Below, piece after piece: positions 18,072-60,093 of a stretch of DNA of 64,000 nt. Source of the stretch: Gammaproteobacteria bacterium (GTDB lineage Bacteria; Pseudomonadota; Gammaproteobacteria; CBDBNL01; JAAOII01). The stretch is taken from positions 926,552 to 990,551 of the forward strand of contig OZ244039.1 in NCBI GenBank assembly GCA_965215225.1, in the 5' to 3' direction. The notes beneath the pieces were generated by a model. It was given only the letters and a program-made list of their open reading frames with translations. It did no database searches and was not told the origin of the DNA. Positions within the stretch are counted from its first letter, which is position 1. Each line of letters opens with the position of its first letter. Both the position numbers and the translations under genes were made by a program.

Positions 18072-21000
18072 ATGAATTGTTATATGTGTTCTTTAATTGA
18101 GCTTTTCTCTAGGCGCTTGCTTATATTAAGTGGTTTTCTATTTGCTGAGTTCTATTTTTTAACACGCCTCATGATGACCCCCTGCTTACTTTATCTGGCA
18201 AGGGGGCGTTCAGTTCTTTTCTTATTAGCAGGAATTAGCTTCTTAGTTCTTATTGCTTGTAGCGGAGGTGGGGGAGGCAGTGATTCGATGGACGGTGATC
18301 CGGGTGGCAATAGATCGATAGACGGTAGTTTAGGAGGGGGTTCTCCCAGAGCTTTTGAAGTGGATATCACTTTTGCTCCTATAAGCGGCGGTTTTCGCAT
18401 AGGTAACCAATCGGACTTTGGCGATTTCGTTTCTTTGAACATTACGGCAACCAGTGGAAACGGGTCGGTAATAGAAGAAAGAAATATCAACATAGCCGAA
18501 TTTATTGATGACAACTATGAATTTACTGGGTTGAATGATCAATTCGATTGGACTTTTGCGATTAGAGGCACTCTTCGTGATGGCAGTCAGCAAGAGGTAA
18601 TGATAGCTTTTGTTTGGGAAGAGAATGAGGAAGACCACGCAAGCGGTGGTATTCGGTCGGGAATCAATAAAGATGGAGATGGGCGAGTGGATAGTGTGGA
18701 TGAGGATGATGATGGAGATGGGCTAGATGATAGTTCAGACCAATGCCGTGTTGGTGAGACAGATTGGATGAGCAATCGTTCTACTGACCATGATGGGGAT
18801 GGTTGCCGAGATGCAAGTAGTGAGGATAATGATGATGATAATGATGAGGTAGATGATATTTCAGATGGATGTTCTCGTGGTGAGACAGATTGGATGAGCG
18901 ATCGTTCTACTGACCATGATGGGGATGGTTGCCGAGATGATGGTGAGGATACAGATGATGATAATGATGAGGTAGATGATATTTCAGATGGATGTTCTCG
19001 TGGTGAGACAGATTGGATGAGCAATCGTTCTACTGACCATGATGGGGATGGTTGCCGAGATGCAAGTAGTGAGGATACAGATGATGATAATGATGAGGTA
19101 GATGATATTTCAGATGGATGTTCTCGTGGTGAGACAGATTGGATGAGCAATCGTTCTACTGACCATGATGGGGATGGTTGCCGAGATGCAAGTAGTGAGG
19201 ATAATGATGATGATAATGATGAGGTAGATGATATTTCAGATGGATGTTCTCGTGGTGAGACAGATTGGATGAGCAATCGTTCTACTGACCGTGATGGGGA
19301 TGGTTGCCGAGATGATGGTGAGGATACAGATGATGATAATGATCTATTGCCAGATTTGATGGATACAGGCATGGTTGATGGAAGGGAGTGTCGTTTGCAT
19401 GAGGATTGTGATAATGATGAGATAGGCGATAGTCCAGACCAATGCCGTGTTGGTGAGACGGATTGGAGGAGTAATCGTTCTACTGACCATGATGGGGATG
19501 GTTGCCGAGATGATGGTGAGGATACAGATGATGATAATGATCTATTGCCAGATTTGATGGATACAGGCATGGTTGATGGAAGGGAGTGTCGTTTGCATGA
19601 GGATTGTGATAATGATGAGATAGGCGATAGTTCAGACCAATGCCGTGTTGGTGAGACGGATTGGAGGAGTAATCGTTCTACTGACCATGATGGGGATGGT
19701 TGCCGAGATGATGGTGAGGATACAGATGATGATAATGATGAGGTAGATGATATTTCAGATGGATGTTCTCGTGGTGAGACAGATTGGATGAGTAATCGTT
19801 CTACCGATCATGATGGGGATGGTTGCCGAGATGATGGTGAGGATACAGATGATGATAATGATGGGTTGGATGATGGTTTGGACCTATGTCCTACCGGTGT
19901 GACGGACTGGACGAGGAATGGTTCTAGCGATCATGATGGGGATGGTTGCCGTGATGCAGATGAGGATACAGATTGTAGCGACTCTATTGCTGGGGTTGAG
20001 TGCAGTATCGATCTTGGCGGCACTACTGATGAATTCCTTAGGGCTAGCGATAGAGACTATTTCGTTGTTGACTTAGAAGAAGCGGGGATCTTAAGCCTTT
20101 GGATACTAGGTTCTCTGAATATAGAGGTCTCTTTGCTTAATGAAGAAGAGGCTTCTCGCTTAAGGGATGAGGGGAATAGTAGTACTTCGCGTCCCTATGA
20201 TCAAAATTATGCCGGCGATCAATATTTCTATGAGCTAGCTGCCGGGAGACACTATTTGGAGATAGTCAATAAAGGTCCTCCGATATCTCTTACCTTAGTC
20301 ACCTCTTTTCAACCAGCCCTGATAGATTCTTGCGGCTCTACTCAGAACACAGCTTGTCCATTGGACAATTTGATTAATTTGGCTAGTGGGAGTATCTATT
20401 CTACCAATGGGAGCATCTATCCCATCAATGACAGTGATATGTTTAAATTTTATATTACAAGGCCTGGGCGATTAACTTTTTGGTTGGAGAGCCAATTGGA
20501 TAGTGAAGCATCTTTGCGGGATGAGGATGGAAACCGGTTAGTCTATGACGACGATGGCGGCTATGGCTATGATTTCAAAATATCACAAAATGTTCACTCT
20601 CTTGGGCGTGGGCTCTATTATCTCGATATTACCAGTGGTTTTTCCTCGTTGGACTATCCCCGCTTTGGTCCTTATGAATTGTTCGTCCAATTTATTCCGA
20701 TGGGGGAGGAGCGAAGGTGCGAATTGGCGGATACAGTGGGAGGAAGCCAGCCCAATCGAACAGCTGATCCTCTATTAGCTTATCAATGGTATCTGGATAG
20801 AATAGGGGTGAAAGAAGTTTGGGCTGAGGGCCATGAGGGGCAAGGGGTTCATATATCCGTAGTGGACAATGGTTTGGATATGATGCATGAGGATCTAATA
20901 CAGAATATTATAGCTAATGCAAGCCGCAATTATCTGGTGAAGGAAGATCATCCATCAAGACATAGCCCTTTACCAACTGATTGCTGGGAAGATGGTCATG

Positions 21001-24000
21001 GCACAGCAGTAGCTGGCATTGCAGCTGCTCGTGGCGATAATGGCTTGGGTATTAAGGGAGTGGCGCCTGAGGCAGGCATCTATATGGCAAACTATCTTCA
21101 ACAACAAAGTCTTACGTCCTTATTGGATGCTTTCAGTCGCAAAACTGATGAGACTCTTGTTTCTGTCAATAGCTGGGGGTCATTATCCTATACAAGGTTG
21201 ACTAAAAGAAACAAACTAGTATTAGAAACGATTGAAGCCCATCTCGACCACCCCCTTAATTCTAGTATTAGCTATGTATTTTCTGCTGGGAATAATCGTG
21301 GAGTGCAGATGGCAACCTATCAAGGAATGCGCAATCATCGCGGCGCTATTACGGTCTGTGCTACCAATGCGCTGGATTCCTATGCTAGTTATTCTAACCC
21401 AGGGATTAACCTTTGGGTTTGCGCTCCTTCTGGCGATGATATTTCTGCTGATGCACCGGCCGGTCTAGGAAGCCCCTTAGGAGAATGGCAGCTAGGCTTG
21501 GCTACTACAGACTTAACTGGTCGGGCTGGTTATAACCAGGGTCTTGCGCCGCCCCCGGTTGGTTCCCCTTTCGGTAACATATTAGAGTCGCATCTTGACT
21601 TTGGCGGCGATGCCTTCTATTATCGGGAAATGGATTATAGGTCGGACTATATATCCTATGATGGCAATCTGATTGCTGGGTTGCCTGGGACAGATGCCTA
21701 TACTAGATTTTTTTTTGGGACCTCGGCAGCAGCTCCGGTGGTAGGGGGAGTCATAGCCTTGATTCGTTCTGCCTATCCGGCTTTAAGTTGGCGAGATACG
21801 AAGCTAATATTAGCGGAATCAGCCGAGCAGGTGGATGCCTCTGCCGCTTCCTGGCAAATAGGTGGCACCGCCTATCATGACACTGGCTCACACTATACCC
21901 ATAGCATAGACTATGGCTTTGGATTGGTAGATGCTGCCGCAGCATTGGATTTGGCTGCGGAATGGCAGGTTTTGCCGCTGGAGCGTCGTAATGAAACTAT
22001 TGAAAAGACTACCCTTTTTGGTCCTGTCAATATTGAGGATACTATTCGTATTGGAGATATTGGTTTCGACTTTATTGAATATGTTCAGCTGGAGATAGAT
22101 AGTTCCTATGCTGATTTTGGTCATCTGGATATTGAGTTAATTTCCCCTAGGGGAATTAGGAGTCTAGTTGCTCGTCGTCATATATGCGCTCGCGGGATAA
22201 GAGAACGAGATTGCGCTGATCTTGAAGGCGGGTTTACCTTTGCCAGTGCTGCCCATTTGGGTGAGGATCCACGAGGAGACTGGACTCTAATAATCGGCGG
22301 TGCGGCCAGCCCTACCCAGTTTGATTGGCAGCTAAGGTTCTATGGTCATCAGAGAGGAGCCGGCTCAGCGCTGGATTCAGATGACGATAATGATGGGGTG
22401 AATGATTATTTTGACCGATGTCCTACTGGTACGACTGGCTGGGCAAGCAATGGTTCTATCGATCATGATGGGGATGGTTGCCGTGATGCGGATGAGGATA
22501 ATGATGACGATAATGATGGTAGAAATGATGTTTCAGACCGATGTTCTACTGGTGCGGTAGGTTGGACGAGCAATCCTTATACCGATCATGATAGGGATGG
22601 TTGCCGTGATAGAGATGAGGATGAAGATGACGATAATGATGGGGTCGATGATGATTTAGACCTATGTCGTACTGGTACGACGGGCTGGACAAGCAATCCT
22701 TCTAGCGATTATGATGGGGATGGTTGCCGTGATAGAGATGAGGATGAAGATGACGATAATGATGGGGTGGATGATGATTTGGACCTATGTCGTACTGATG
22801 TGGCGGGCTGGACAAGCAATGGTTCTAGCGATAATGATGGGGATGGTTGCCGTGATGTGGATGAGGATAGGGATGGGGGTCAGGGTACAGATGACGATAA
22901 TGATGGGGTGGATGATGATTTGGACCTATGTCGTACTGGTGTGACGGACTGGGAAAGCAATGGTTCTAGCGATTATGATGGAGATGGTTGCCGTGATGCG
23001 GATGAGGATCCAGATGACGATAATGATGAGGTGGATGATGATTTGGACCTATGTCGTACTGGTGTGACGGACTGGATGAGCAATGGTTCTAGCGATAATG
23101 ATGGGGATGGTTGCCGTGATGTGGATGAGGATAGGGATGGGGGTCAGGGTACAGATGACGATAATGATGGGGTGGATGATGATTTGGACCTATGTCGTAC
23201 TGGTGTGACGGACTGGGCAAGCAATGGTTCTAGCGATAATGATGGGGATGGTTGCCGTGATAGAGATGAGGATAATGATGACGATAATGATGGGTTGGAT
23301 GATGATTTGGACCGATGTTTTGCTGGTGTGACGGGCTGGACGAGGAATGGTTCTAGCGATCATGATGGGGATGGTTGCCGTGATGCGGATGAGGATGATG
23401 ATGATGATAATGATGGGGTGGATGATGATTTGGACCTATGTCGTACTGGTGTGACGAACTGGACGAGCAATCCTTCTAGCGATCATGATGGGGATGGTTG
23501 CCGTGATGCGGATGAGGATGATGATGATGATAATGATGGGTTGGATGATGATTTGGACCGATGTTTTGCTGGTGTGACGGATTGGATGAGGAATGGTTCT
23601 AGCGATAATGATGGGGATGGATGCCGTGATGTGGATGAGGATAGGGATGGGGGTCAGGGTACAGATGATGATAATGATGGGTTGGATGATGATTTGGACC
23701 GGTGTCCTACTGGTGCGACGGGTTGGACAAGCAATGGTTCTAGCGATTATGATGGAGATGGTTGCCGTGATATGGATGAGGATCCAGATGATGATAATGA
23801 TGGGTTGGATGATGATTTGGACCGGTGTCCTACTGGTGTGACGGACTGGACGAGGAATGGTTCTAGCGATAATGATGGGGATGGATGCCGTGATGTGGAT
23901 GAGGATAGGGATGGAGGTCAGGGTACAGATGACGATAATGATGGCCTTTCAAACGAGTTGGATCTGGATCTGGATGGGGATGGGTTAATAGAGATAGCTA

Positions 24001-25568
24001 CGGCGGCGGAATTAGATGCAGTGCGCTATTCTCTAAATGGTAATGGGCGTAGGTTATCAGAAGATGCGGTGCTCAACACCACTGGCTGTGGTGGAGCTAG
24101 AGGCGTTACTTCTTGTTTCGGTTATGAGCTGGTTGCGAATATAAGTCTTGTGGATTATAGAGATGACAAAGGCTGGCAACCATTGGGTCATGATACGGAT
24201 AGTTCTACATATGGATGTCAAGGAGCTGCTTTTAATGGGGCTTTTGATGGCAATAGTTTTAGGATTAGCAATTTAACCATTAATCGTCCGAGTGAAGATT
24301 GTGTGGGTTTGTTTAGTCATATAACCGAAGGTTCAGAGATTCGCAATCTTATTCTTAGTGCCGAGGCAGTGATAGGTAAGGATTTTGTAGGCGGTCTGAT
24401 GGGGTGGGGTAGATCGGCTTCGATTTATTCTTCATCGGTTGTGGCAGATGAGGTGAGCGGGAGTATAGAAGTAGGCGGTCTGGTGGGGGCTGGTGAATCG
24501 GTTTTGATTCATTCTTCTTCGGTTGTAGTGAATGAGGTGAAAGGGTTTTTGTCGGTAGGCGGTCTGGTGGGGTGGGGTAGATCGGCTTCGATTTATTCTT
24601 CATCGGTTGTGGCAGGTGTGGTGAACGGGAATACAGAAGTAGGCGGTCTGGTGGGGGGTGGTGGATCGGCTCGGATTGATTCTTCATCGGTTGTGGCAGG
24701 TGTGGTGAACGGGAGTATAGAAGTAGGCGGTCTGGTGGGGTGGGGTAGATCGGCTTCGATTTATTCTTCATCGGTTGTGGCAGGTGTGGTGAACGGGAAT
24801 ACAGAAGTAGGCGGTCTGGTGGGGTGGGGTAGATCGGCTTCGATTTATTCTTCATCGGTTGTGGCAGGTGTGGTGAACGGGAGTATAGAAGTAGGCGGTC
24901 TGGTGGGGAATGGTCACTCGGCTTGGATTGTTTCTTCTTCGGTTGTGGCAGGTGAGGTGAGCGGGATTGGTGATAGAAGTCGTGCTGTAGGCGGTCTGGT
25001 GGGGTGGGGTAGATCGGCTTCGATTTATTCTTCATCGGTTGTGGCAGGTGAGGTGAGCGGGATTGGTGATAGAAGTGGTGCTGTAGGCGGTCTGGTGGGA
25101 TATTTTGAGGATGGTAGGGTTGCTTATTCTTATGTAGTCTTAGACAGTGATACTGCTATGCTGGTTGGGAGGGGAGACGGGACTGGAGTTGCTTCTTATT
25201 GGGACAGTGAGACTAGTGATATCAATATTGGCAATCATGGTGAAGCTAAGACCAGCAATGATCTTCGCATGCCAACTGGCTATACAGATATTTATGCCAC
25301 TTGGAACGATGAGACAAATATATTTGGCGATGGGGAAGACGAGTCACTGGCGGTCTGGTGTGATAAGGATAATAGTAGGACCATTGAGGCGGATGAAAAA
25401 ATTGATGACAATCGCATCTGGAATTTCGGCACTTCAAGTGAGTATCCCGCCATTCGCTGTACTCCCACCACTCCTACTGAATGGCGTAGCTGGTGGTTTT
25501 TGAATGCAACTGGCAAACCCCAATTAAACCAGACCCGTTTAGACAACCTACTCCCCTCCTTAAACTAA
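18072..25568 (+). CDS. Giant lipoprotein: TSP3-like Asp-rich repeats, PPC-like domains, kexin/furin-like S8 protease with P-domain, further repeats, GLUG region
   Basis: Lipobox LIAC; about 21 DGCRD repeats; S8 triad VVDNG / HGTAVAG / GTSAAAP with oxyanion SAGN; YGFGLVDA; P-domain HLGEDPRGDWTL; VGGLVG repeats. Confidence 0.88.
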   Translation: MNCYMCSLIELFSRRLLILSGFLFAEFYFLTRLMMTPCLLYLARGRSVLFLLAGISFLVLIACSGGGGGSDSMDGDPGGNRSIDGSLGGGSPRAFEVDITFAPISGGFRIGNQSDFGDFVSLNITATSGNGSVIEERNINIAEFIDDNYEFTGLNDQFDWTFAIRGTLRDGSQQEVMIAFVWEENEEDHASGGIRSGINKDGDGRVDSVDEDDDGDGLDDSSDQCRVGETDWMSNRSTDHDGDGCRDASSEDNDDDNDEVDDISDGCSRGETDWMSDRSTDHDGDGCRDDGEDTDDDNDEVDDISDGCSRGETDWMSNRSTDHDGDGCRDASSEDTDDDNDEVDDISDGCSRGETDWMSNRSTDHDGDGCRDASSEDNDDDNDEVDDISDGCSRGETDWMSNRSTDRDGDGCRDDGEDTDDDNDLLPDLMDTGMVDGRECRLHEDCDNDEIGDSPDQCRVGETDWRSNRSTDHDGDGCRDDGEDTDDDNDLLPDLMDTGMVDGRECRLHEDCDNDEIGDSSDQCRVGETDWRSNRSTDHDGDGCRDDGEDTDDDNDEVDDISDGCSRGETDWMSNRSTDHDGDGCRDDGEDTDDDNDGLDDGLDLCPTGVTDWTRNGSSDHDGDGCRDADEDTDCSDSIAGVECSIDLGGTTDEFLRASDRDYFVVDLEEAGILSLWILGSLNIEVSLLNEEEASRLRDEGNSSTSRPYDQNYAGDQYFYELAAGRHYLEIVNKGPPISLTLVTSFQPALIDSCGSTQNTACPLDNLINLASGSIYSTNGSIYPINDSDMFKFYITRPGRLTFWLESQLDSEASLRDEDGNRLVYDDDGGYGYDFKISQNVHSLGRGLYYLDITSGFSSLDYPRFGPYELFVQFIPMGEERRCELADTVGGSQPNRTADPLLAYQWYLDRIGVKEVWAEGHEGQGVHISVVDNGLDMMHEDLIQNIIANASRNYLVKEDHPSRHSPLPTDCWEDGHGTAVAGIAAARGDNGLGIKGVAPEAGIYMANYLQQQSLTSLLDAFSRKTDETLVSVNSWGSLSYTRLTKRNKLVLETIEAHLDHPLNSSISYVFSAGNNRGVQMATYQGMRNHRGAITVCATNALDSYASYSNPGINLWVCAPSGDDISADAPAGLGSPLGEWQLGLATTDLTGRAGYNQGLAPPPVGSPFGNILESHLDFGGDAFYYREMDYRSDYISYDGNLIAGLPGTDAYTRFFFGTSAAAPVVGGVIALIRSAYPALSWRDTKLILAESAEQVDASAASWQIGGTAYHDTGSHYTHSIDYGFGLVDAAAALDLAAEWQVLPLERRNETIEKTTLFGPVNIEDTIRIGDIGFDFIEYVQLEIDSSYADFGHLDIELISPRGIRSLVARRHICARGIRERDCADLEGGFTFASAAHLGEDPRGDWTLIIGGAASPTQFDWQLRFYGHQRGAGSALDSDDDNDGVNDYFDRCPTGTTGWASNGSIDHDGDGCRDADEDNDDDNDGRNDVSDRCSTGAVGWTSNPYTDHDRDGCRDRDEDEDDDNDGVDDDLDLCRTGTTGWTSNPSSDYDGDGCRDRDEDEDDDNDGVDDDLDLCRTDVAGWTSNGSSDNDGDGCRDVDEDRDGGQGTDDDNDGVDDDLDLCRTGVTDWESNGSSDYDGDGCRDADEDPDDDNDEVDDDLDLCRTGVTDWMSNGSSDNDGDGCRDVDEDRDGGQGTDDDNDGVDDDLDLCRTGVTDWASNGSSDNDGDGCRDRDEDNDDDNDGLDDDLDRCFAGVTGWTRNGSSDHDGDGCRDADEDDDDDNDGVDDDLDLCRTGVTNWTSNPSSDHDGDGCRDADEDDDDDNDGLDDDLDRCFAGVTDWMRNGSSDNDGDGCRDVDEDRDGGQGTDDDNDGLDDDLDRCPTGATGWTSNGSSDYDGDGCRDMDEDPDDDNDGLDDDLDRCPTGVTDWTRNGSSDNDGDGCRDVDEDRDGGQGTDDDNDGLSNELDLDLDGDGLIEIATAAELDAVRYSLNGNGRRLSEDAVLNTTGCGGARGVTSCFGYELVANISLVDYRDDKGWQPLGHDTDSSTYGCQGAAFNGAFDGNSFRISNLTINRPSEDCVGLFSHITEGSEIRNLILSAEAVIGKDFVGGLMGWGRSASIYSSSVVADEVSGSIEVGGLVGAGESVLIHSSSVVVNEVKGFLSVGGLVGWGRSASIYSSSVVAGVVNGNTEVGGLVGGGGSARIDSSSVVAGVVNGSIEVGGLVGWGRSASIYSSSVVAGVVNGNTEVGGLVGWGRSASIYSSSVVAGVVNGSIEVGGLVGNGHSAWIVSSSVVAGEVSGIGDRSRAVGGLVGWGRSASIYSSSVVAGEVSGIGDRSGAVGGLVGYFEDGRVAYSYVVLDSDTAMLVGRGDGTGVASYWDSETSDINIGNHGEAKTSNDLRMPTGYTDIYATWNDETNIFGDGEDESLAVWCDKDNSRTIEADEKIDDNRIWNFGTSSEYPAIRCTPTTPTEWRSWWFLNATGKPQLNQTRLDNLLPSLN
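18670..19975 (+). repeat. Coding tandem repeat block 1 (9 DGDGCRD units, mostly 123-126 bp)
   Basis: Repeated ctgaccatgatggggatggttgccgagatg. Confidence 0.93.
22373..23990 (+). repeat. Coding tandem repeat block 2 (12 DGCRD units, 123-141 bp)
   Basis: Repeated gatggggatggttgccgtgat...gataatgatggg. Confidence 0.93.
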
Positions 25569-27151: not shown

Positions 27152-27152
27152 T

Positions 27153-51071: not shown

Positions 51072-51090
51072 ATTAATTGGTTCTATTGAT

Positions 51091-52467: not shown

Positions 52468-52477
52468 ATGTCCTTCT

Positions 52478-52524: not shown

Positions 52525-52582
52525 AATTGCCTTTATAGAACCACAAGGCCAGTGGAATCTGATTGAGCCCTTTCTCTTTGGT

Positions 52583-54703
52583 TTGGGGAGAGGGGGTATA
52601 ATAAAATCCTATGAAACAGCTTCTATCCTTAAGCAGTTGCCGGCTTTTCGTTCCTTTGTGGTAGGCTTCGGCTTCCTAGTCCTCATTGCTTGTAGTGGCG
52701 GGAAAGATTCTCCTAGTGCTTTTGAGGTGGAACTCACTTTTGCTCCCTTAAGCGGCGGCTTTCAAATAGGCAACCAATCGGACTTTGGCGACTTCGTTTC
52801 TTTGAAGATCACAGCAACCAGTGAGGGCAGGTCTATAGTGGAGAGAAGTATCAGCACAGCCGAATTTGTTGACGGCAGCTATGAATTTACTGGACTAGAT
52901 GATCAATCTAGTTGGACCTTTAGGATCCTAGGCACTCTTGGTGATGGCAGGCAGCAGGAGGTGGCGATAGTTTTTGTTTGGGCTGAGAATGAGGAAGACC
53001 ACAAGAGCGGCGGTATTCGGGCGGGAATCAATACAGATGGAGATGGTCGGGCGGATAGTATAGATACAGATGACGATAATGATGGCATAGATGACCTTTC
53101 AGATAAATGTCCTACTGACGAGACAGGATGGGTAAGTAACTCTTCTACTGATAGGGATGGGGATGGTTGCCGTGATGAGGATAGAGAAGAGGATAGAGAA
53201 GAGAATAGAGAAGAGGATAGAGAAGAGAATAGAGAAGAGGATAGAGAAGAGAATAGAGAAGAGGATAGAGAAGAGAATAGAGAAGAGAATAGAGAAGAGG
53301 ATAGAGAAGAGGATAGAGAAGAGAATAGAGAAGAGGATAGAGATGAGGATAAGGATGGCTATATAAATGGTGTTGATCTAGACGATGACGGCGATGGTTT
53401 GATAGAGATAGGGACGGCAGCCGAACTGGATGCAGTGAGATATGCTCTGGATGGCAGTGGGCAAAAGTTGTCAGCAGATGGGATGTTTAACTCCACTGGC
53501 TGCGATGGTGACACTACTTCTTGTGCTGGCTATGAGCTGATTGCTAATATTAGTCTTGCCTCTTATAGAGATGGCGAAGGCTGGCAACCTCTGGGGCATG
53601 ACACAGATAATTCTACAACTGGATGCCAAGGAGCTGCTTTCAATGGAACTTTTGAGGGCAATGGCTTTAGGATTAGCAATTTAATCATTAATCGTCCGAA
53701 TGAAGATTGTGTGGGTTTGTTTGGCCAAATGGCGGTAGATTCAGCAATTCGCAATCTGAATCTTCATGCTGAGACAGTAATAGGTAGGGACAGAGTGGGA
53801 GGTTTGATGGGGGCAATGGTAAATGCTACGATTACTTCTTCTTCTATAAGCATTGGTAATATCAGCGGAGAGGTTCGGGTAGGAGGTTTGGTAGGGAGTG
53901 GGGTGGGTGCTAAGATTATTTCTTCTTCGGTTGTGGCTGGTGGGGTGAGAGGGGCTGGGCAGCTAGGTGGTCTGCTAGGGCATGGTCAAAATGCTACGGT
54001 TATTTCTTCTTCGGTTGTGGCAGCTAAGGTGAGAGGCGGTGATAGTGTGGCAGCTTTGGTAGGCTGGGGTATAGGTGCTAAGATTATTTCTTCATCGGTT
54101 GTGGCGGGTGAAGTGAGTGGAGGTGGGTCTGTTGTAGGCGGTCTGGTTGGGTGGGGTAATTCGGCTCGGATTATTTCCTCTTCGGTGGTGGTAGCTGAGA
54201 TGAGCGGGTTCGATAATGTAGGTAGTCTGGCAGGGTATTTTGATGGACAGCTTGCTTATTCTTATGTAATCTCAGGTAGGACGAATGCTGATATGCTAGT
54301 GGGAGGTGGAAATGGGATTGGAGTTGCTTCTTATTGGGATAGCAATACCAGTGGCATAGCCAAGGGCAATCATGGTCATGCCAAGACAAGTGATGAACTT
54401 CGGCGACCCACTGACTATAGCGGGATCTATGCCACTTGGAACAATCACACAAATATATTTGGCGATGGGGATGAACCATTGGCTGTCTGGTGTGATGAGG
54501 ATCTTAGTGGGAGCATAGAGCCAGATGAAAGAAGCCATGGCAATCGCGTTTGGGATTTCGGTACGGATGGGGAGTATCCCGCCATTGGCTGCGGTCCTAT
54601 CTCTCCTGCCGAGTGGCGTAGCTGGTGGTTTTTGAATAGAATGACTAATAGCATCCAGCTCAATCAGACCCGTCTGAATAATCGGCTGCCCTCATTAAAC
54701 TGA
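52583..54703 (+). CDS. GLUG-repeat lipoprotein, paralog 3, with (REED/REEN)13 spacer; start uncertain
   Basis: Lipobox LIAC, shared N-terminal domain, one DGCRD unit, GLUG repeats and shared C-terminus ending LPSLN. Confidence 0.85.
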   Translation: MGRGGIIKSYETASILKQLPAFRSFVVGFGFLVLIACSGGKDSPSAFEVELTFAPLSGGFQIGNQSDFGDFVSLKITATSEGRSIVERSISTAEFVDGSYEFTGLDDQSSWTFRILGTLGDGRQQEVAIVFVWAENEEDHKSGGIRAGINTDGDGRADSIDTDDDNDGIDDLSDKCPTDETGWVSNSSTDRDGDGCRDEDREEDREENREEDREENREEDREENREEDREENREENREEDREEDREENREEDRDEDKDGYINGVDLDDDGDGLIEIGTAAELDAVRYALDGSGQKLSADGMFNSTGCDGDTTSCAGYELIANISLASYRDGEGWQPLGHDTDNSTTGCQGAAFNGTFEGNGFRISNLIINRPNEDCVGLFGQMAVDSAIRNLNLHAETVIGRDRVGGLMGAMVNATITSSSISIGNISGEVRVGGLVGSGVGAKIISSSVVAGGVRGAGQLGGLLGHGQNATVISSSVVAAKVRGGDSVAALVGWGIGAKIISSSVVAGEVSGGGSVVGGLVGWGNSARIISSSVVVAEMSGFDNVGSLAGYFDGQLAYSYVISGRTNADMLVGGGNGIGVASYWDSNTSGIAKGNHGHAKTSDELRRPTDYSGIYATWNNHTNIFGDGDEPLAVWCDEDLSGSIEPDERSHGNRVWDFGTDGEYPAIGCGPISPAEWRSWWFLNRMTNSIQLNQTRLNNRLPSLN
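53183..53338 (+). repeat. 12 bp coding tandem repeat agagaagag(g/a)at x13
   Basis: Encodes (REED/REEN)13. Confidence 0.95.
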
Positions 54704-54957: not shown

Positions 54958-57900
54958 ATGAAAAAATCATTTTTTGTTTTTAGCGCGGCTAGGTTCTGCT
55001 TTTTCGGTAGTATGCCACGCTTTTATTTGCCCTCATTCATTTCGTCTAGTTTGAGACCGGGCCTCTTTTCTCTTTTAGTTAGTCTACTAGTTCTTACTGC
55101 TTGTGCTGGCGGAGGAGGAGACACCACAGACAGTGGCGCCGGAAACGGGAACGGAAACGGGAACGGAAACGGGAACGGAAATGGCGGCGGCAGCACTAGT
55201 CTGAATTTTGATTGGAACATAAGACCCTTCGCTGACGGAATACAAATTGACTGGCATAATATAGAACGTTTCAGAAGGACAATCCGTAATGTAGAACTTT
55301 CTCGAAGGACAGTCCATTCTTTAAGATTTCAAATCATTGAATTAGGGCAGCGATTTCCCAGTTCTGAATTTAATACTGTTAGTCTTGGGAGTTTTGTTGA
55401 TGGTGCTTACAATCTAACTGGGCTGATGGAAGGCTCTCGCTATAGGATTAGGGTAAGAGAGGTGCTAGCAAATAGATCGCTTGGCGAGATTCCAAATATC
55501 AATTTATTAGGAGAAAGAGAAGAGCAGCCGGATGACGGCAGCATTATCATCACTATTGGGTCCAACTGGGATTATGACCAGCTAGCGGATAGTTTAGATC
55601 CGGATGATGATAATGATCGCATTTTGGATGTGGATGACCTCTTCTGTCCGCGGGGAGATGTGGGGTGGGACGGTACTAACCAAGCAAATGATAGAGATGG
55701 GGATGGTTGCCGCGATGCAGGTGAGGATAAAGATGACGACAATGATGGGGCATTAGACGTAAATGAAGAACCTGGTTGTCAGTTCGAGCGCGACTGTGAC
55801 GATGACGATCTGATAGATGGGGATGAAGAACCTGGTTGTGCTAGGTTACCGGATTGTGATGGTGATACTATACGAGATATAGCTGACGCCTGTCCGCGCG
55901 GGATAATGAATTTGATCAGTAATCCTTCGACAGATCTTGATGGCGATGGTTGTCTTGATGACGAGGATCCGGATATTGATGGGGATAATTTGCCGGATGA
56001 ATTAGAACCGACTGGTTGTGAGAGAAACTCTGATTGCGACAATGATACGGTTCTGGATGGAGATGAGGTTGCTACTTGTATAGAGCAAGCGGATTGTGAT
56101 AGTGATGGGTCCCGCGATGATGTAGATATAGATGATGATGGGGATGGACTAATAGAAGTGGCAGAAGCAGCAGGACTAGCCTCAATTCGCTATCAGTTGG
56201 ATGCTAGTGGAGTCAGGCGAACTGCAGATGGGGAATTAAACACCACTGGCTGTGGTGGTGCTGGCGGCATTAGATCCTGTAATGGTTACGAACTAGTGAG
56301 GGATATTGACTTGACCGCTTATATCAATACTAATTATCGAGATGAGGATAATGTTAATATAAATGAGGGTTGGCAGCCTATTGGATATGATACCAACCTG
56401 ACGAGAGAAGGCTGTCAGGGAGATGGCTTCACCGGGATTTTTGAAGGCAATGCCAAGACGATTAGTGGTTTGAGTATAGACCGCCCCCAAGAAGACTGCA
56501 TTGGCCTCTTCGGTAATGTGAGGTCGCGTGGATGGATTCGTAATCTTGTCCTAGTAACAGGTGATGTATCCGGACGTGATAGGGTCGGGGGACTGATAGG
56601 CCAGGCTTTCGGATCTTTTGTCGAATTGACTTCCATAACAGTTAGAACAGATGAGGTATCTGGTCGAGATCAGGTTGGGGGTATGATAGGCTATGCTCTC
56701 ATAGGAAGCAGGGTATTTCCAATCCCAGCGCCTCCGCCGCCACTGGTGCCAGGTGGTCCGGTAGCCGTTCCTTCAGACCGGAACAACATATTCGCCTCCC
56801 TTATAGTGGACTCTCATAGTATTAGAGGCCGAAATGATGTGGGTGGTTTAATAGGCTATGCTTTTGATTTTACTCTTGGCTCTTCTAGGGCTGGTTCTGT
56901 TTTGTTGCATGGTAATGACAATATAGGCGGGCTCGTCGGGGCAGGTCTTTATGGCGTGATTGGAGGTTCCAGTGCCAATGCTACTGTATTGAGAGGCAAT
57001 GACAATATAGGTGGCTTGTTGGGACGTGGGGAAGGCAGTGCTATTGTCTCCTCCCATGCGACTAGTCGTTCTTTGGAAGGTCACGATAGAGTAGGTGGCT
57101 TGGTGGGCAATGGTTATCGTCGGACCCGTCCTATAAGTAGAACTCCTCCTTTGTGCGAGTTCTCCATTTTTGGTATTGGTCCTATAGTAGAGGCTATATT
57201 TTGCTCCGAACATCTTACCATTCTTTATTCCTATGCAATTAGCGATTCGTTTAGGGCCAATGATAGTGTGGGTGGTTTAGTGGGGAATGGTTTTGCCAGC
57301 GAGATTACTGGTTCCTACGCGATTTTTCGTTCGTTAGAGGGAGGAATTCATGTAGGTGGGCTGATGGGAAGAGGGGTTACGGCCAAGGTGGTGTCTTCTT
57401 ATGCATTCTTTGATTCACTAAATGCTACCAGATTTCTGGGTGGCTTGGTGGGAACGGCCTTAGCTACTGATGATCCTACCGCTATTGTTGCTTCCTATGC
57501 TAGATCAAGAACCCTTGTGGGGACGGGCTTTGTGGGTGGTCTAATAGGAGCGGGTGGTAGTTTAGTGGGAGATGCTTCTACCACTATTATTTATTCTTAT
57601 GCATTATCAGGCTTTGTGGAAGGGACTGAGGGTGAAGAAGACGCTCTGATGGGATGGACTTTTTATCCTCACCGTATAACGAATTCCTATTGGGATAGTA
57701 ACACTCCAAATATAATAGCTGAGCATGGCGGCGGCAGGCAAAGGGGAAATCGGTTAATATCGCCAACTGGTTATACTGGGATTTTTGCTAATTGGAATAA
57801 TGGCTATGACCTAGATAGGGAAGCAGGTGTGGAGGAGATCACTAAATGGTGTGATACTGATGCTAGTGGCGAGGTAGATGCAAGTGAAAAAGAGGATGCG

Positions 57901-60093
57901 AATCGAATATGGGATTTTGGCACCGATACTCAGTATCCCGCCATTCGCTGCACTCCAGATAGCGTAGAAAATCAGCGTGCCTGGTGGTATGTTCAGGACA
58001 GCATAGGCCAGCTAGTGTTTAATGAGAAGCCCCTAGACAATGCTATTTCAGGGATTGTTATTGCAGCTGGACAGGATGATGATTTTGATGGCTATGTCAA
58101 TTCAGAGGATAATTGTCCCTCAGCAGTGAATGATCAAACCGATACAAATGGTGATGGTGATGGCGATGTGTGTGATGAGGATGACGATGGTGATACTATC
58201 ACAGATGCGGATGAAGCAGCCCCCCGTTGTCAGCTATTGACCGATTGTGATGGCGACGGGCATGATGATAATACGGACAACTGTCCTTTGATGGCAAATA
58301 GTGCTCAATTGGATAATGACACAGATAACCAGGGGGATCTGTGTGATAACGATGACGATGGTGATAATGTCGCGGATGTGGATGAAGCAGCCCCCCATTG
58401 CCGGTTGTTAGCAGACTGTGATGGCGACGGGCATAATGATAATATGGACAACTGTCCTTTAGTGCCAAATGATCAAGCCGATGGAGATGGTGATGGCAAA
58501 GGCGATGCCTGTGAAGATTCTGATAAGGACGGCTTAGATGACGATGATGATAATTGTCCTTTTGTGGCAAGTCAAGACCAAACGGATAGTGATTCAGATG
58601 GCCATGGGGATGTTTGTGATCTGGATGATGATGGCAATGGCTTAATAGAGATTCACAATGCTTCTCATTTGGATTGGGTGAGATATCAGCTGGATGGCAC
58701 TGGCATGAGTCTGTCGCCCGCTGGAGTAAAAGACACTACTGGTTGTGGTAGGAGTAGAAGGGACAGCTGTTCTGGCTATGAGCTGGCAGATAACATTGAC
58801 CTTACTAGCTATATTGATACCAACTATGGGGCTGCCGGTTGGCAACCCATAGGCAGTGGCAGCTTTCCACTCACCCTTTCAGCAAGCCTTGGCTGTGTCA
58901 GACCTGAAACTCTAGACAACCCCATGCCCGGAGATGCTTTCAGCGGAACCTTTGAAGGCAATGGATTTAATATTACTGGTTTATGGATTGATCGTCCCGA
59001 TCAAGACTGTATTGGTCTATTTGGCCATGTGGCCCCAGATTCGGAGATTCGCAACCTTGGCGTCTTAGCCACTGAGATAAGAGGTAATATAGGCGTGGGC
59101 GTTCTAGTGGGAGAAGGAACCGGTAGCAGGATTGTTTCCTCCTATGCAATCTCAGATGAGGTTCATGGCAACAATTATGTGGGCGGTTTGTTAGGATTGG
59201 CATATGTTCATTCTCGACACGGAGATATCAGCACTAGAATTACTTCTTCTTATGCAGTCAGTGGTTTGATAAGAGGGGATTGGGTTGTGGGCGGTTTGGT
59301 GGGAGAATATAGGAATCATGATAGTGAGAGAGTTGCAATGAAATATTCTTATGCGATTGTTGATATGATGAAAGGTACCAGGTCTGATGGAAGCGACGCT
59401 ATGGGAGGCTTGGTAGGTTTTCTAGACGACGCTACTATTATTGGTTCTTATGCAATTACGAATTTAATAGATGGGAATGGTGGTGATGAAGTAGCTGGTC
59501 TCATAGGCGAAAGTTTCGCCAGTAATAAGCTTATTTCTTCCTATTCAATTAGTGGTTCAATCAGTGGGAATGTAGAAGTAGGTGGTCTAGTAGGGTATTT
59601 TACTGGTAATCAAGCTTCTATTTCATATTCCTATGCAATCAGTGGTTCAATAAGTGGGAGGGAAACAGGTGGTTTAGGAGGGGAAATAAGGTCCACTGTA
59701 ACTGTCACTGACTCCTATTGGAATAGTGAGGCTGGCACCTTTAATAATCCCTTACCAGGCGGTGAAGCAAAGACTAATGTTGAACTGAGAGAGCCGACTG
59801 ACTATACAGGTATCTATGATAGCTGGGATGACGGCTTGGATATAGATGGAGATCGTAACGCTAGAGTTGATGATATTAGTATCTACTGTGACGAGGATAA
59901 TAGTGGGAGGATTGAAAGTGATGAAAGAAACAATGACAATCGCCTATGGGATTTTGGCACTAACAACGACTTTCCTGCCCTTCGCTGTTCCCCATTGACA
60001 CCGACTGAGCAGCGAAGCTGGTGGTCTTTGGATAGGAGTGGCGACCCCCAAATAGACCAAAACCGTTTAGACCAGCTGCTTCCTTCAAACTGA
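54958..60093 (+). CDS. GLUG-repeat lipoprotein, paralog 4: two tandem TSP3-GLUG modules
   Basis: Lipobox LTAC; (GN)n linker; DNCP...NDQ.D.DGDG.GD.C TSP3 repeats; two GLIE[VI]...GYEL...GWQP...WDFG...PA.RC modules. Confidence 0.85.
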   Translation: MKKSFFVFSAARFCFFGSMPRFYLPSFISSSLRPGLFSLLVSLLVLTACAGGGGDTTDSGAGNGNGNGNGNGNGNGGGSTSLNFDWNIRPFADGIQIDWHNIERFRRTIRNVELSRRTVHSLRFQIIELGQRFPSSEFNTVSLGSFVDGAYNLTGLMEGSRYRIRVREVLANRSLGEIPNINLLGEREEQPDDGSIIITIGSNWDYDQLADSLDPDDDNDRILDVDDLFCPRGDVGWDGTNQANDRDGDGCRDAGEDKDDDNDGALDVNEEPGCQFERDCDDDDLIDGDEEPGCARLPDCDGDTIRDIADACPRGIMNLISNPSTDLDGDGCLDDEDPDIDGDNLPDELEPTGCERNSDCDNDTVLDGDEVATCIEQADCDSDGSRDDVDIDDDGDGLIEVAEAAGLASIRYQLDASGVRRTADGELNTTGCGGAGGIRSCNGYELVRDIDLTAYINTNYRDEDNVNINEGWQPIGYDTNLTREGCQGDGFTGIFEGNAKTISGLSIDRPQEDCIGLFGNVRSRGWIRNLVLVTGDVSGRDRVGGLIGQAFGSFVELTSITVRTDEVSGRDQVGGMIGYALIGSRVFPIPAPPPPLVPGGPVAVPSDRNNIFASLIVDSHSIRGRNDVGGLIGYAFDFTLGSSRAGSVLLHGNDNIGGLVGAGLYGVIGGSSANATVLRGNDNIGGLLGRGEGSAIVSSHATSRSLEGHDRVGGLVGNGYRRTRPISRTPPLCEFSIFGIGPIVEAIFCSEHLTILYSYAISDSFRANDSVGGLVGNGFASEITGSYAIFRSLEGGIHVGGLMGRGVTAKVVSSYAFFDSLNATRFLGGLVGTALATDDPTAIVASYARSRTLVGTGFVGGLIGAGGSLVGDASTTIIYSYALSGFVEGTEGEEDALMGWTFYPHRITNSYWDSNTPNIIAEHGGGRQRGNRLISPTGYTGIFANWNNGYDLDREAGVEEITKWCDTDASGEVDASEKEDANRIWDFGTDTQYPAIRCTPDSVENQRAWWYVQDSIGQLVFNEKPLDNAISGIVIAAGQDDDFDGYVNSEDNCPSAVNDQTDTNGDGDGDVCDEDDDGDTITDADEAAPRCQLLTDCDGDGHDDNTDNCPLMANSAQLDNDTDNQGDLCDNDDDGDNVADVDEAAPHCRLLADCDGDGHNDNMDNCPLVPNDQADGDGDGKGDACEDSDKDGLDDDDDNCPFVASQDQTDSDSDGHGDVCDLDDDGNGLIEIHNASHLDWVRYQLDGTGMSLSPAGVKDTTGCGRSRRDSCSGYELADNIDLTSYIDTNYGAAGWQPIGSGSFPLTLSASLGCVRPETLDNPMPGDAFSGTFEGNGFNITGLWIDRPDQDCIGLFGHVAPDSEIRNLGVLATEIRGNIGVGVLVGEGTGSRIVSSYAISDEVHGNNYVGGLLGLAYVHSRHGDISTRITSSYAVSGLIRGDWVVGGLVGEYRNHDSERVAMKYSYAIVDMMKGTRSDGSDAMGGLVGFLDDATIIGSYAITNLIDGNGGDEVAGLIGESFASNKLISSYSISGSISGNVEVGGLVGYFTGNQASISYSYAISGSISGRETGGLGGEIRSTVTVTDSYWNSEAGTFNNPLPGGEAKTNVELREPTDYTGIYDSWDDGLDIDGDRNARVDDISIYCDEDNSGRIESDERNNDNRLWDFGTNNDFPALRCSPLTPTEQRSWWSLDRSGDPQIDQNRLDQLLPSN

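Follow-up and report, generated by a model that had tools for sequence, protein, structure and literature searches.

On balance, four genes in the window (the whole 64,000-nt stretch of DNA that was analysed) are best viewed as part of a lineage-specific repertoire of about 140 lipoproteins that are predicted to be phase variable, anchored in the outer membrane and adhesin-like. A sequence-only reading of the window had proposed a dispersed four-member family with a fixed chassis and a variable middle, serving as an expanding scaffold for surface display, and this interpretation is supported in part. The four ORFs all lie on the + strand and are open, and the features said to be common to them (lipobox, Gly-rich tether, Asp-rich repeats, Cys-bearing module, GLUG repeats and tail) are indeed shared. 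However, the count of four arose because only one window was visible; genome-wide, there are instead 152 family ORFs.

Profile HMMs for the core module, the tail and the N-terminal domain (N-domain) were built from paralogs of the same genome. The core and tail HMMs match all four window genes (i-E 1e-38 to 9e-69), in agreement with the claim of a common Cys-bearing module and tail, and the N-domain HMM matches three of the four (i-E 4e-47 to 8e-45), again as claimed. Every gene also begins with the predicted common lipobox, in which a hydrophobic stretch leads to LIAC or LTAC and then to a Gly/Ser-rich run. The first gene, P0001 (18072..25568; 2498 aa), was delineated from its ORF, its translation, and HMM and Pfam matches, and is laid out as a lipoprotein with an S8 protease cassette flanked by two TSP3-like arrays and then a single beta-helix module. 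Because an ATGATG, followed by a short C5 run, is found at 18171, the annotated ATG (18072) probably lies upstream of the true start, which is likely to be this ATGATG. The lipobox Cys codon (LIAC, then SGG) is at 18258..18260, followed by an N-terminal FN3-like domain at 18357..18653 (N-domain HMM i-E 6e-47), whose fold is inferred from the model of P0002. The first TSP3-like Asp/Cys array (18692..19973) consists of D.DGC units arranged in repeats of 123-126 nt and of 198 nt, for which TRF gives 5.2 copies with 92% matches and 2.5 copies with 98% matches. The protease cassette that had been noted comprises a Peptidase_S8 (subtilase) domain at 20838..21833 (residues 923-1254; Pfam 110.2 bits, cut-off 21.8), with the catalytic motifs D (VVDNG), H (HGT) and S (GTSAA) visible in this order in the translation, and a proprotein-convertase P-domain (P_proprotein) at 22077..22301 (residues 1336-1410; 34.1 bits, cut-off 21). 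There follow the second TSP3-like array at 22379..23944 (TRF period 123 nt, 10 copies; period 264 nt, 5.1 copies, 88% matches) and, at 23955..25553, the beta-helix module with its core N-cap, GLUG turns and tail C-cap (core i-E 1.3e-55, tail 8.7e-69), the GLUG body of which appears in the tandem-repeat search as an 84-nt repeat present 7.9 times. The earlier estimate of about 21 repeats in this gene proved to be exact: there are 21 D.DGC units, 8 of which precede residue 620 while 12 follow residue 1430.

The other three genes show simpler or duplicated versions of this plan. P0002 (46970..49234; 754 aa), which shows the minimal architecture and was used for the structure model, has its lipobox Cys codon at 47162..47164 (LIAC, then AGG), an FN3-like N-domain at 47282..47569 (AF2 pLDDT ~80-87; structural alignment) and a beta-helix module at 47708..49228 (residues 247-753). 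P0003 (52583..54703; 706 aa, TTG start) is 62% identical to P0002 across their length. Its lipobox Cys codon is at 52691..52693 (LIAC, then SGG), its FN3-like N-domain at 52724..53017 (HMM i-E 3.8e-47), and its beta-helix module at 53369..54688 (core i-E 3.6e-55, tail i-E 9.6e-61). What had been called a charged spacer in this gene is a 12-nt unit repeated 14.6 times (53177..53351; 93% matches) and encoding an EEDREENR-type sequence. In P0004 (54958..60093; 1711 aa), the lipobox Cys codon (LTAC, then AGG; 55102..55104) is followed at the N-domain position by a divergent FN3-like relative of that domain (55180..55602), which hhalign aligns to it with a probability of 82.6% and an E value of 9.6e-6 over 42 columns; its match to Pfam fn3 is below the cut-off (E 0.013, 16.1 bits versus 25). 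A second whole module had been reported here, and two core modules and two tails are in fact found. Module 1 occupies 56119..58047 (core i-E 4e-48, tail i-E 3.9e-42) and module 2 occupies 58612..60081 (core i-E 1.2e-38, tail i-E 3.4e-51), with TSP_3 repeats between them at 58054..58581 (residues ~1033-1208; Pfam 28.2 bits, cut-off 25). The window also encodes, on the - strand at 34535..36079, apolipoprotein N-acyltransferase (Lnt; Pfam LNT_N 106.9 bits, CN_hydrolase 108 bits), the third enzyme of lipoprotein maturation.

The genome (2.318 Mb, 44.9% G+C) devotes 482,325 bp, or 20.8% of its length, to the 152 family ORFs, 142 of which are at least 400 aa and the longest 7,296 aa. Together they contain 178 core modules, 184 tails and 87 N-domains. 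Single-module ORFs account for 122 of the 152 (70 with an N-domain and 52 without), and up to seven modules occur in tandem in one ORF. Thus, the view of an expanding, modular family holds, with one to seven modules per ORF and varied extra domains. Nine ORFs contain only a tail, four of these being consecutive ORFs of 85-87 aa, and one family gene is broken in two, with the N-domain in one ORF and core plus tail in another. The typical member consists of a lipobox, a flexible Gly/Ser tether, an FN3-like spacer in about half of the cases, an Asp-rich stalk of thrombospondin-type-3-like repeats with paired cysteines, and one or more beta-helix heads. The Sec/lipobox signal is strongly conserved, mostly as FLVLTAC followed by AGGGG; an N-terminal hydrophobic signal ending in [LVI][ASTVI][GAS]C is present in all four window genes, a lipobox regular expression matches 115 of 151 family ORFs, with a few false matches by eye, and the lipobox Cys codon is TGT in 114 of 116. 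Paralogs are ~55-60% identical, and apart from the lipobox Cys, six cysteines are invariant across 25 aligned sequences. Full-length relatives are present in all four other genomes of the same GTDB family (20-59 scored matches each), and 300 further genomes from the class yielded none.

Structural comparison indicates that what had been called the chassis is a known kind of domain rather than a new scaffold. In the AF2 model of P0002 (mean pLDDT 71.8, ~90 in the helix), the core module, the GLUG repeats and the tail are modelled as a single right-handed beta-helix, capped like the solved members of its kind, with the core module as N-cap, the 28-residue GLUG turns as body and the tail as C-cap. 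The best Foldseek match is 3n6z (E 4.5e-4). By VIA-align, the helix of P0002 matches the S. pneumoniae IgA1 protease structure 6xjb (Z 25.0, 268 aa, rmsd 3.0, 21% identity) and residues 35-375 of the 3n6z chain (Z 24.7 with P0002 residues 247-753), and the family profile matches IgA1 protease by sequence as well (E 3.8e-6). The corresponding helix of IgA1 protease binds the Fab of the substrate (PMC7695701). The same fold also matches the mannuronan epimerases AlgE4 and AlgE6 (Z 20-21), an L. reuteri SRRP adhesin domain (Z 18.8), and lyases or esterases (Z 9-16, with fucoidan and alginate lyases at 15-16). Furthermore, the N-domain, which had been considered unassignable, is modelled with an FN3-type beta-sandwich fold: P0002 residues ~100-205 align with FN3 domains at VIA-align Z 8.0-9.1 (rmsd 2.0-3.6 A over 81-94 residues), a Z near 8 being only moderately specific, and Foldseek gives TM values of 0.53-0.67, normalised to the target. 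The P0002 N-domain has no match to Pfam fn3 (PF00041) even at E <= 1. Pfam likewise sees little of the repeats. The GLUG turns that had been recognised are present in the helix; however, the Pfam Glug model (PF07581) finds none in P0001, P0002 or P0003 at E <= 0.01 and scores 17.8 bits in P0004 against a cut-off of 20.5, while 6 of the 20 largest paralogs pass with 25-70 bits. Pfam TSP_3 (PF02412) has no match at E <= 0.01 in P0001, P0002 or P0003, despite the 21 D.DGC units of P0001; P0004 passes its cut-off.

When the extra domains of the 20 largest paralogs were tabulated by Pfam, S8 plus P-domain was found in 3 (besides P0001), fn3 in 10, Big_13 Ig arrays in 4 and TSP_3 arrays in 8. The variable parts do differ, as had been supposed, but the S8 domain follows the tail in three paralogs, and the middle is consequently not the only variable site. 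Although the folds are known ones, domain arrangement varies from member to member, and so do the variable parts of the paralogs; neither of the outcomes that had been named as refuting the earlier reading, a characterised family of fixed architecture or a lack of cargo diversity among paralogs, was thus observed. The domains have partly independent histories: among 70 genes, N-domain and core share their nearest paralog in only 16, N-domain and tail in 23, and core and tail in 17, and in one pair of paralogs nucleotide identity steps from ~90% to 72-82% within the core module. The 123-126 nt tandem arrays with 92-98% matches are a sign of recent length change. Hence, the earlier suggestion that recombination alters length and cargo finds support in these mosaic histories and arrays; however, slippage in poly-C/G tracts, carried by 38 paralogs, is likely to be the main source of variation, judging from sequence. 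The core and the tail have median dN/dS values of 0.43 and 0.42, respectively, in the 9 closest paralog pairs, and the family genes look functional. The GLUG body has a median of 0.90, with 3 of the 9 pairs above 1; as dS is raised in this part as well, errors in aligning the repeat registers may have pushed the ratio up. Across 483 of the 28-residue turns, eight positions with 3.2-3.9 bits of entropy are interspersed among near-invariant ones.

The case for phase variation comes from homopolymer tracts. The genome contains 55 G/C tracts of 8-38 nt, 43 of them in or at most 300 nt upstream of family ORFs; 38 of the 55 fall in family 5' zones, which account for 4.6% of the genome (binomial P ~5e-38). 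On the coding strand, 31 of these 38 read as poly-C, 30 of which are located 62-137 nt before the lipobox Cys codon. Most lie between the ATG and the signal peptide, and others within the tether or shortly ahead of the start codon. As assembled, ATG-linked poly-C tracts are in frame in 8 of 23 genes and poly-G tether tracts in 2 of 5, so that 10 of the 28 classifiable switches are in frame and 18 out of frame. This share of about one third is that expected for free-running tract lengths, although individual on/off calls are uncertain, because a single assembly supplies the lengths and errors are common in long homopolymers. Homologues in other assemblies have Pro runs of differing length between the same flanks (in one example, five Pro versus C11 and C26 tracts in the two closest genes here), and a sister-genus genome has a 25-nt poly-C tract directly after the lipobox of a family gene. 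Taken together, these findings suggest that the tracts probably switch many family genes on and off. However, tract-bearing genes are 38 of 142, and G/C runs in the whole window never exceed 7, so that none of at least 8 lies in the 5' regions of its four genes; consequently, phase variation is extended to these through family membership only.

These results have led to the following model. Lgt, LspA and Lnt would lipidate the Cys, and since residue +2 is Ala, Ser or Gly rather than Asp, the protein should be routed by the Lol pathway to the outer membrane. Such a lipobox signal points to the inner leaflet of that membrane, and surface exposure does not follow from it alone. LolA is present in the genome. 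The protein would then probably reach the cell surface, possibly by way of the type II secretion system of this genome, for which the evidence is one secretin and GspL, 6 kb apart; a search for Slam (PF04575) gave no match, and the control was likewise unmatched in every genome. By analogy with known TSP3 repeats, the stalk probably binds Ca2+ through its repeats and owes stiffness to them. The heads would bind protein or glycan ligands with the variable residues that face outward on the helix turns, and a few members would additionally bear an S8 protease that looks active from its motifs. Variation would arise in three layers: old duplication and divergence, module shuffling together with changes in tandem-repeat length, and, in 38 genes, slippage of a hypermutable poly-C or poly-G tract that toggles the gene. 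The four window genes, lacking such a tract, would be constitutive members. That the target of the family is a host is a guess.

Other explanations have been considered. A small scaffold system, in which recombination swaps interchangeable cargo (protease, spacer or extra module) displayed in mid-protein, would account for the real differences among the variable parts, for the mosaic histories and for the recent arrays. It nevertheless appears unlikely, given that 122 of 152 ORFs are plain single-module ones and few have long extra stretches beyond Asp-rich repeats, that most extra domains are of the spacer type (FN3, Ig, TSP3) rather than effectors, that S8 follows the tail in three paralogs, and that the conserved chassis itself resembles a ligand-binding type of domain. 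Somewhat less probable still is the idea that the heads are polysaccharide enzymes or binders (lyase-, epimerase- or esterase-like) in a toolkit for marine particles or glycans. The matches to AlgE4/AlgE6, lyases and the SRRP adhesin are consistent with such a role, as is a type II secretion system, a common route for secreted hydrolases; in addition, no RuBisCO was found in the genome, and the organism is thus probably a heterotroph. However, IgA1 protease and 3n6z, whose helices are non-catalytic, give clearly the best matches (Z 25), caps included; most invariant positions in the alignment are Gly, Val, Leu, Ser, Cys or aromatic, without a visible conserved cluster of acidic or basic residues in the helix body; and catabolic enzymes poorly explain ~140 diverged copies with on/off tracts.

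Two further possibilities concern function of a different kind, or none. The proteins might mediate self-recognition, cell-to-cell cohesion, or a matrix or coat, like TSP3-repeat cohesion proteins, and not be directed at host or prey. P0004 partially matches NCBIfam MtsC through its TSP3 repeats (83.2 bits, E 1.7e-23), and the organism reaches high abundance in the sequencing runs containing it, with a single-copy depth of 14-56 in three and ~200-320 in a fourth. This role is improbable, however: the match is limited to the repeats and far under the 350-bit cut-off, the anchor here is a lipobox whereas MtsC has a C-terminal MYXO-CTERM sorting signal, and 38 independent on/off switches would not be expected of coat or cohesion proteins. 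Finally, the family could be mostly decaying or selfish repeated DNA, either pseudogenes or a repeat assembly artefact, now without function. Fragments do exist (the nine tail-only ORFs and the split gene), and the assembly places 18 of 28 classifiable tract-bearing genes out of frame, but this would be very hard to reconcile with 142 long open ORFs, with the low core and tail dN/dS, with a leading-strand location for 126 of 142 family genes versus 485 of 783 other long ORFs, and with retention of the family in four of four related genomes. Moreover, conserved family stretches have ~20-100x the single-copy depth in independent sequencing runs, as expected for genuine multi-copy DNA.

The repertoire of adhesin-like lipoproteins resembles several known systems in part. 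Like the M26 IgA1 proteases (6xja/6xjb) and BACOVA_03286 (3n6z), its members have the helix fold with its caps (~268 residues, 18-21% identity), and paralogs show weak Pfam Peptidase_M26_N matches at profile positions 204-250, which cover the core module (20-32 bits versus a cut-off of 27.7, sub-threshold except for one just above). The window genes were not accepted as M26 metalloproteases, since none of the four has HExxH or a Peptidase_M26_C match. Furthermore, IgA1 protease has a Gram-positive cell-wall anchor, whereas this family is anchored by an N-terminal lipid, and its helix is fused to FN3 and TSP3 stalks and multiplied ~180 times in this one genome. Phase-variable lipoprotein families are known in Mollicutes (Vlp, Vsa, VlhA) and simple-repeat contingency genes in Neisseria, Haemophilus and Campylobacter. 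As in these, many paralogous genes, here for predicted surface proteins, have a conserved signal peptide, and hypermutable simple repeats occupy the promoter or the 5' part of the coding sequence, with about one third of the genes in frame. By contrast, the carrier here looks gammaproteobacterial from its housekeeping genes and same-class kinship labels, and the proteins are large folded beta-helix proteins rather than short repeat lipoproteins; the tracts, at up to 38 nt, are also very long, and switching is here predicted from sequence. The largest known share of a Mycoplasma genome taken by such a family is about a tenth, compared with 20.8% here. The stalks share DxDxDG-type Asp-rich units and paired Cys with TSP3 repeats and with Myxococcus MtsC (NF047638), and identity with this equivalog was rejected (P0004 83.2 bits over residues 1033-1145, P0003 15.7 bits, cut-off 350). 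P0001 and three paralogs match Peptidase_S8 (85-126 bits) and P_proprotein like kexin/subtilisin S8 plus P-domain proteases; unlike in those, the S8 domain of P0001 is embedded between TSP3-like arrays in a lipoprotein, with a GLUG beta-helix behind it. The S8 equivalogs mycosin and dentilisin PrtP (NCBIfam) were also rejected, at ~64 bits against cut-offs of 279-300. Finally, Ca. Ichthyocystis, an intracellular bacterium with a reduced genome and large private gene families, likewise has a genome on the ~2.3 Mb scale with a fifth to a third occupied by duplicated and diversified families, but it is a different organism with 35-38% G+C (44.9% here) and 26 families, mostly hypothetical proteins and predicted T3SS effectors, rather than one lipoprotein family with known folds (PMC4943182). 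An FlhB/YscU-type export gene was not found in the present genome.

The commitment of 20.8% of a small genome to one predicted surface-protein family implies strong and lasting selection on the surface. There is also an annotation gap: the core, tail and N-domain are without a Pfam match in most members, yet the module is very widespread in public data, with 9,773 protein cluster representatives matching the profile at E <= 1e-30. It may be, although this is put forward tentatively, that ~140 lipoproteins, at least 38 of them independently switched by poly-C/G tracts of 10-38 nt, give the cells a combinatorial, heritable and reversible surface. Surface repertoires switched by simple repeats are chiefly familiar from Mollicutes, spirochaetes and some pathogens of mucosal surfaces. 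If the proposal is true, a far larger repertoire in an uncultured gammaproteobacterial lineage would broaden our understanding of where and how this strategy evolves, and would represent contingency-locus surface variation on a scale and with an architecture undescribed for Proteobacteria. It would also point to intense frequency-dependent selection on this lineage, whether from host immunity, phages or grazers.

The four long plus-strand ORFs of the sequence-only reading, P0001 (18072 to 25568), P0002 (46970 to 49234), P0003 (52583 to 54703) and P0004 (54958 to 60093), are present at these coordinates, and the observation made on them is confirmed. Each translation begins with a hydrophobic N-terminus that leads to LIAC or LTAC and continues through a Gly/Ser-rich run and Asp-rich repeats to a block that starts with DGDGLIE and contains four conserved Cys; this is followed by VGGLVG-type repeats and by a conserved C-terminal part carrying two more Cys. 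The identity between P0002 and P0003 is 62%, and in A2, an alignment of 25 sequences that includes homologues, the lipobox Cys, at which the proteins would be lipidated, and six further Cys are invariant. The differences reported among the genes are also present: P0001 has 21 D.DGC units (about 21 had been counted), which flank a Peptidase_S8 plus P-domain cassette; the charged spacer of P0003 carries a 12-nt unit repeated 14.6 times; and the second whole module of P0004 corresponds to two core modules and two tails. As had been stated, the family HMM finds the N-terminal domain (N-domain) in three of the four genes, and P0004 has a divergent relative at this position (hhalign probability 82.6%, E 9.6e-6; Pfam fn3 E 0.013). 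Pfam recognizes the S8 and P-domains in P0001, with a borderline match to PPC (pre-peptidase C-terminal; 25.6 bits, cut-off 25.9) between the first repeat array and the S8 domain (19749-20861), and TSP_3 (28.2 bits) plus a sub-threshold Glug in P0004; such TSP3-like repeats would bind Ca2+. The Pfam scan gave no match for P0002 and a chance-level match only for P0003.

The family had been described as having four members, but an HMM census of the genome (a single contig of 2,317,988 bp, 44.9% G+C, estimated to be 93.9% complete) reveals 152 ORFs with at least one family domain. In this census, HMMs of the N-domain, core and tail, built from the genome's own paralogs, were run over all stop-to-stop ORFs of at least 80 aa. 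The 152 ORFs, of which 142 are at least 400 aa long and 141 have both core and tail, sum to 482,325 bp, or 20.8% of the genome, and the genome as a whole contains 178 core modules, 184 tails and 87 N-domains. The architecture N-domain, core and tail is found in 70 ORFs and core plus tail in 52; seven ORFs have four modules, and the longest (7,296 aa) combines seven modules with six N-domains. Fragments are few (nine tail-only ORFs and one split gene). Odd copies are located at 296087-296761, 404994-407622 and 553880-559462 of the genome; they include four overlapping tail-only ORFs of 85-87 aa, one gene whose N-domain and whose core plus tail are on separate ORFs, and one member with Tyr in place of the lipobox Cys, and these copies are probably frameshifted, decaying or altered.

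From the median pairwise identities among paralogs (N-domain 60%, core 62%, tail 53%), the family copies are old. The genes favor the leading strand, where 126 of 142 lie, versus 485 of 783 other ORFs of at least 300 aa. In four public sequencing runs, the depth of conserved family stretches is roughly 20-100 times that of the neighboring nqr genes, which fits real multi-copy DNA. Mapping of runs over 46000-60500 yielded short contigs only, piled across paralogs, and joints at 85% likeness are cross-paralog mappings. None of the eight listed runs (five studies) with the organism is recorded as RNA.

An AlphaFold2 model of P0002, built from A2, has a mean pLDDT of 71.8; local values are ~80-87 over residues 104-186 and rise to ~90 in the helix. 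Three disulfides are predicted in P0002, with the putative pairs C291-C300, C337-C365 and C688-C721. The top PDB match found by Foldseek (E 4.5e-4) is 3n6z, which is named a 'putative IgA1 protease' and comes from Bacteroides ovatus, after which the matches include dozens of FN3 domains. When VIA-align scores were computed on targets from Foldseek's list, the highest was that of the Streptococcus pneumoniae IgA1 protease (6xjb, chain 773-1619; Z 25.0 with model residues 247-740, 268 aa, rmsd 3.0, 21% identity), followed by 3n6z (Z 24.7, residues 247-753) and 6xja (chain 773-1084; Z 24.6, residues 248-724). Lower scores were obtained for AlgE mannuronan epimerases (Z 20-21), the L. reuteri SRRP adhesin domain (Z 18.8), lyases (Z 15-16) and pectin methylesterases (Z 11-12), and FN3 domains align with residues ~100-205 at Z 8.0-9.1. 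By sequence, the A2 profile matches IgA1 protease (E 3.8e-6), and weak Peptidase_M26_N matches in paralogs coincide with the core module. A search of the ESM Atlas, to be taken as a lead only, gave a top score of 0.86, to GLUG or hypothetical clusters.

Given the structure and profile matches, the module, GLUG repeats and tail, which had been listed as separate parts of a surface scaffold, form one beta-helix domain of a known type, in whose predicted fold they are the N-cap, body and C-cap, respectively. Similarly, the structure matches make the N-domain, which had been called unassignable, an FN3-like sandwich in the model, though it has no sequence-level Pfam match. The helix of IgA1 protease, residues 781-1070, is described as binding the substrate Fab and gating the active site (PMC7695701). 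The helix is common to IgA1 protease and the window proteins, whereas the M26 catalytic domain, like the HExxH motif, is missing from all four of the latter. The helix of the family proteins may be a ligand-binding one.

The variable parts were sampled by a Pfam scan of 20 of the 152 ORFs, chosen for the longest stretches outside the family domains (of two of these, the first 3,400 and 1,696 residues were used). The domains found were fn3 in 10 of the 20, TSP_3 in eight, Glug in six, Big_13 and related Ig arrays in four, and Peptidase_S8 plus P_proprotein in three; two had no Pfam family. The extra material in these paralogs consists for the most part of spacer-type domains. The protease had been read as a middle insert; however, in all three S8-bearing paralogs it sits C-terminal of the tail, and it is present in just four genes of the genome, P0001 among them. 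For the 70 genes that have a single N-domain, core and tail, the nearest paralogs of the individual domains were compared. N-domain and core agree on the same paralog in 16 genes, N-domain and tail in 23, and core and tail in 17; with domains this short, the test is noisy. The DNA identity between P0002 and a paralog at a distance of 640 kb is about 90% from 200 nt upstream as far as ~47800 and drops to 72-82% beyond that point. The repeat arrays of P0001 have units of 123-126 nt with 92-98% matches, which shows recent expansion. For the nine closest pairs (at least 75% identity over at least 450 aa) out of 105 single-module genes, the median dN/dS is 0.43 in the core and 0.42 in the tail; it is 0.90 in the GLUG body and exceeds 1 there in three of the nine pairs, values that are possibly inflated by misaligned repeat registers. 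The consensus of 483 in-register turns, VGGLVGxGxxAxIxSSSVVxxEVxGxxx, is 28 residues long and has eight high-entropy positions. Taken together, these results bear signs of recombination and of selection and uphold the sequence-only reading of the family as modular, expanding and mosaic, but that reading missed its scale, took known folds as new and gave too much weight to 'cargo'.

Genome-wide, the reading frames of family genes extend, in the median, 66 codons further 5' than the lipobox Cys, and frame-0 stop codons are depleted back to about -150 nt from it. In many members, the protein seems to be extended N-terminally of the signal peptide, and the poly-C tracts sit in this extension. In the window, a long open N-terminal reach is seen, for example, at 46970-47100 (P0002) and 18072-18170 (P0001). 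A conserved promoter common to all paralogs was also considered and was rejected, because ungapped conservation extends no further than ~60 nt 5' of the Cys codon.

Beyond what the sequence-only reading had noted, the genome has 55 G/C homopolymer tracts of at least 8 nt, 42 of which are at least 14 nt; the longest is 38 nt. Family ORFs, or the 300 nt upstream of them, contain 43 of the 55, and 38 family genes each have one tract in their 5' zone, these zones amounting to 4.6% of the genome (binomial P ~5e-38). A group of the 38 loci is clustered at 408172-435641 of the genome. In 31 of these 38, the tract is poly-C on the coding strand, and in 30 of the 31 the lipobox Cys codon is 62-137 nt 3' of it; a frequent layout is an ATG followed directly by C(16-31) and then ACTTATCTAGTT. 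Five 5' tracts are poly-G and fall within the Gly tether; of these, four come directly after the lipobox. The remaining two sit just 5' of the start of giant genes. Judged from sequence, this is the anatomy of slipped-strand contingency loci, and the family genes concerned would be subject to switching. As assembled, 8 of 23 ATG-linked poly-C tracts and 2 of 5 tether poly-G tracts are in frame, a combined 10 of 28 that is near the one third expected for free-running lengths, tract lengths from a single assembly being unreliable. Other public assemblies contain homologues with 72-83% identity to the best-matching ORF of this genome; in these, Pro runs differ in length and their flanks are conserved, and one has five Pro at the site where the two closest genes here have C11 and C26.

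The four window genes are without such a tract: no G/C run in the entire window exceeds 7 nt, and the run of that length lies outside their 5' regions; P0001 retains only a C5 run, after ATGATG at 18171. Elsewhere in the genome, another ten G/C tracts, 16-32 nt long, are not associated with the family; they are located at 110040, 547289, 666436, 725341, 803607, 1180422, 1864238, 2171283, 2269024 and 2283986. Other long ORFs (1135-1609 aa) have several of these at their ends, and the tracts may mark further phase-variable genes.

In other genomes of the same GTDB family, C or G tracts of at least 14 nt occur at nine places in G001, which belongs to a different genus and, at the one locus examined there, has C25 directly after the lipobox of a family gene, and at one place in G002; none is found in G003 or G004. 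The sister-family genome G005 also has one, at a locus (2198312-2201325 of its contig C1) where ATG, five codons and C25 precede the lipobox signal peptide of an unrelated lipoprotein. Since G005 is without the GLUG family, this type of switch may predate the family's expansion.

With P0002 as query, all four other genomes of the GTDB family gave matches (20-59 scored matches each), the one sister-family genome gave none, and 25 other genomes of the class gave one weak match (4.2e-5). The A2 profile matches 25 of 300 other class genomes at E <= 1e-5, almost exclusively at profile positions 310-610, the helix body, and in this sample no full-length match was found outside the window's own genome. 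Among 1.84 billion cluster representatives, the profile matches 61,832 at a threshold of E <= 0.001; at E <= 1e-30 the number is 9,773. Many are giant multi-module proteins matched at positions ~250-630; consequently, the helix module is common in nature. The lipobox-FN3-TSP3-helix-tail architecture and its massive expansion are, among the genomes sampled, particular to this lineage. Two unrelated genomes of the class sample, G075 and G227, both of 2.3 Mb, have 102 and 170 first-look candidates, three of which were scored in each, and GLUG or TSP3 proteins may have expanded independently in them. No description of this family was found among the papers listed by searches on GLUG-motif proteins and on poly-C-tract lipoproteins.

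The neighbors of the four genes are housekeeping genes of gammaproteobacterial type (PDH, Lnt, MurJ, ParC, TatC, NqrAB, PBP1a, Tgt). Identity of the organism as Ca. Ichthyocystis was rejected, as G+C content and gene families differ. Neither the RuBisCO large subunit nor FlhB/YscU was found in the genome (93.9% complete), and an Rfam scan of the window found nothing. Several other features were seen in the window. In the stretch 49710-52461, the nqrA and nqrB genes are followed by a strong terminator-like hairpin with a 17-bp stem (52424-52461) and then by two family genes. Other Rnf-Nqr (Pfam) subunits, Nqr and Rnf not being told apart, are encoded at 1451137-1452392, 594455-595431 and 2134490-2135044 of the genome, and thus the nqr operon may be split. 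Just 5' of nqrA is an intergenic, perfect 16-nt tandem repeat (49546-49671; 7.9 copies, 100% matches). Within 44442-45549, a minus-strand ORF (44442-45071) has a 66-nt repeat (4.5 copies, 96% matches) encoding a repeated Lys/Arg-rich peptide; the adjoining array of 11 copies of a 35-nt repeat (45099-45495) can be read through in several frames and probably does not code for protein. The region 3721-4971, which may be a restriction-modification or mobile remnant, contains a gene for an N6/N4 DNA methylase (Pfam N6_N4_Mtase, E 4e-30) and, after it, ORFs that match no Pfam family.

The residue at +2 from the lipobox Cys is Ala, Ser or Gly. In E. coli, such residues predict sorting to the outer membrane, and by this rule the family proteins are predicted to be sorted there; LolA is present in the genome. 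One secretin and a GspL, 6 kb apart, suggest a cluster for type II secretion (T2SS), near 846-853 kb of the genome. In Klebsiella, pullulanase, a lipoprotein, reaches the surface through such a system, and surface exposure of the family proteins could likewise occur through the T2SS. A search for Slam (PF04575) gave no match in the genome, and its control likewise matched no genome.

The analysis establishes the size of the family, the conservation of its lipobox and the position and enrichment of the tracts, along with the folds predicted for the domains; lipidation, display on the surface, binding of Ca2+ and of ligands, and switching as such are inferred. The interpretation toward which we lean, with moderate confidence, is that these lipoproteins form an adhesin-like repertoire, anchored in the outer membrane and probably exposed on the surface, in which roughly one member in four has a simple-repeat on/off switch. 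The beta-helix and FN3-like folds in these proteins are of known types.
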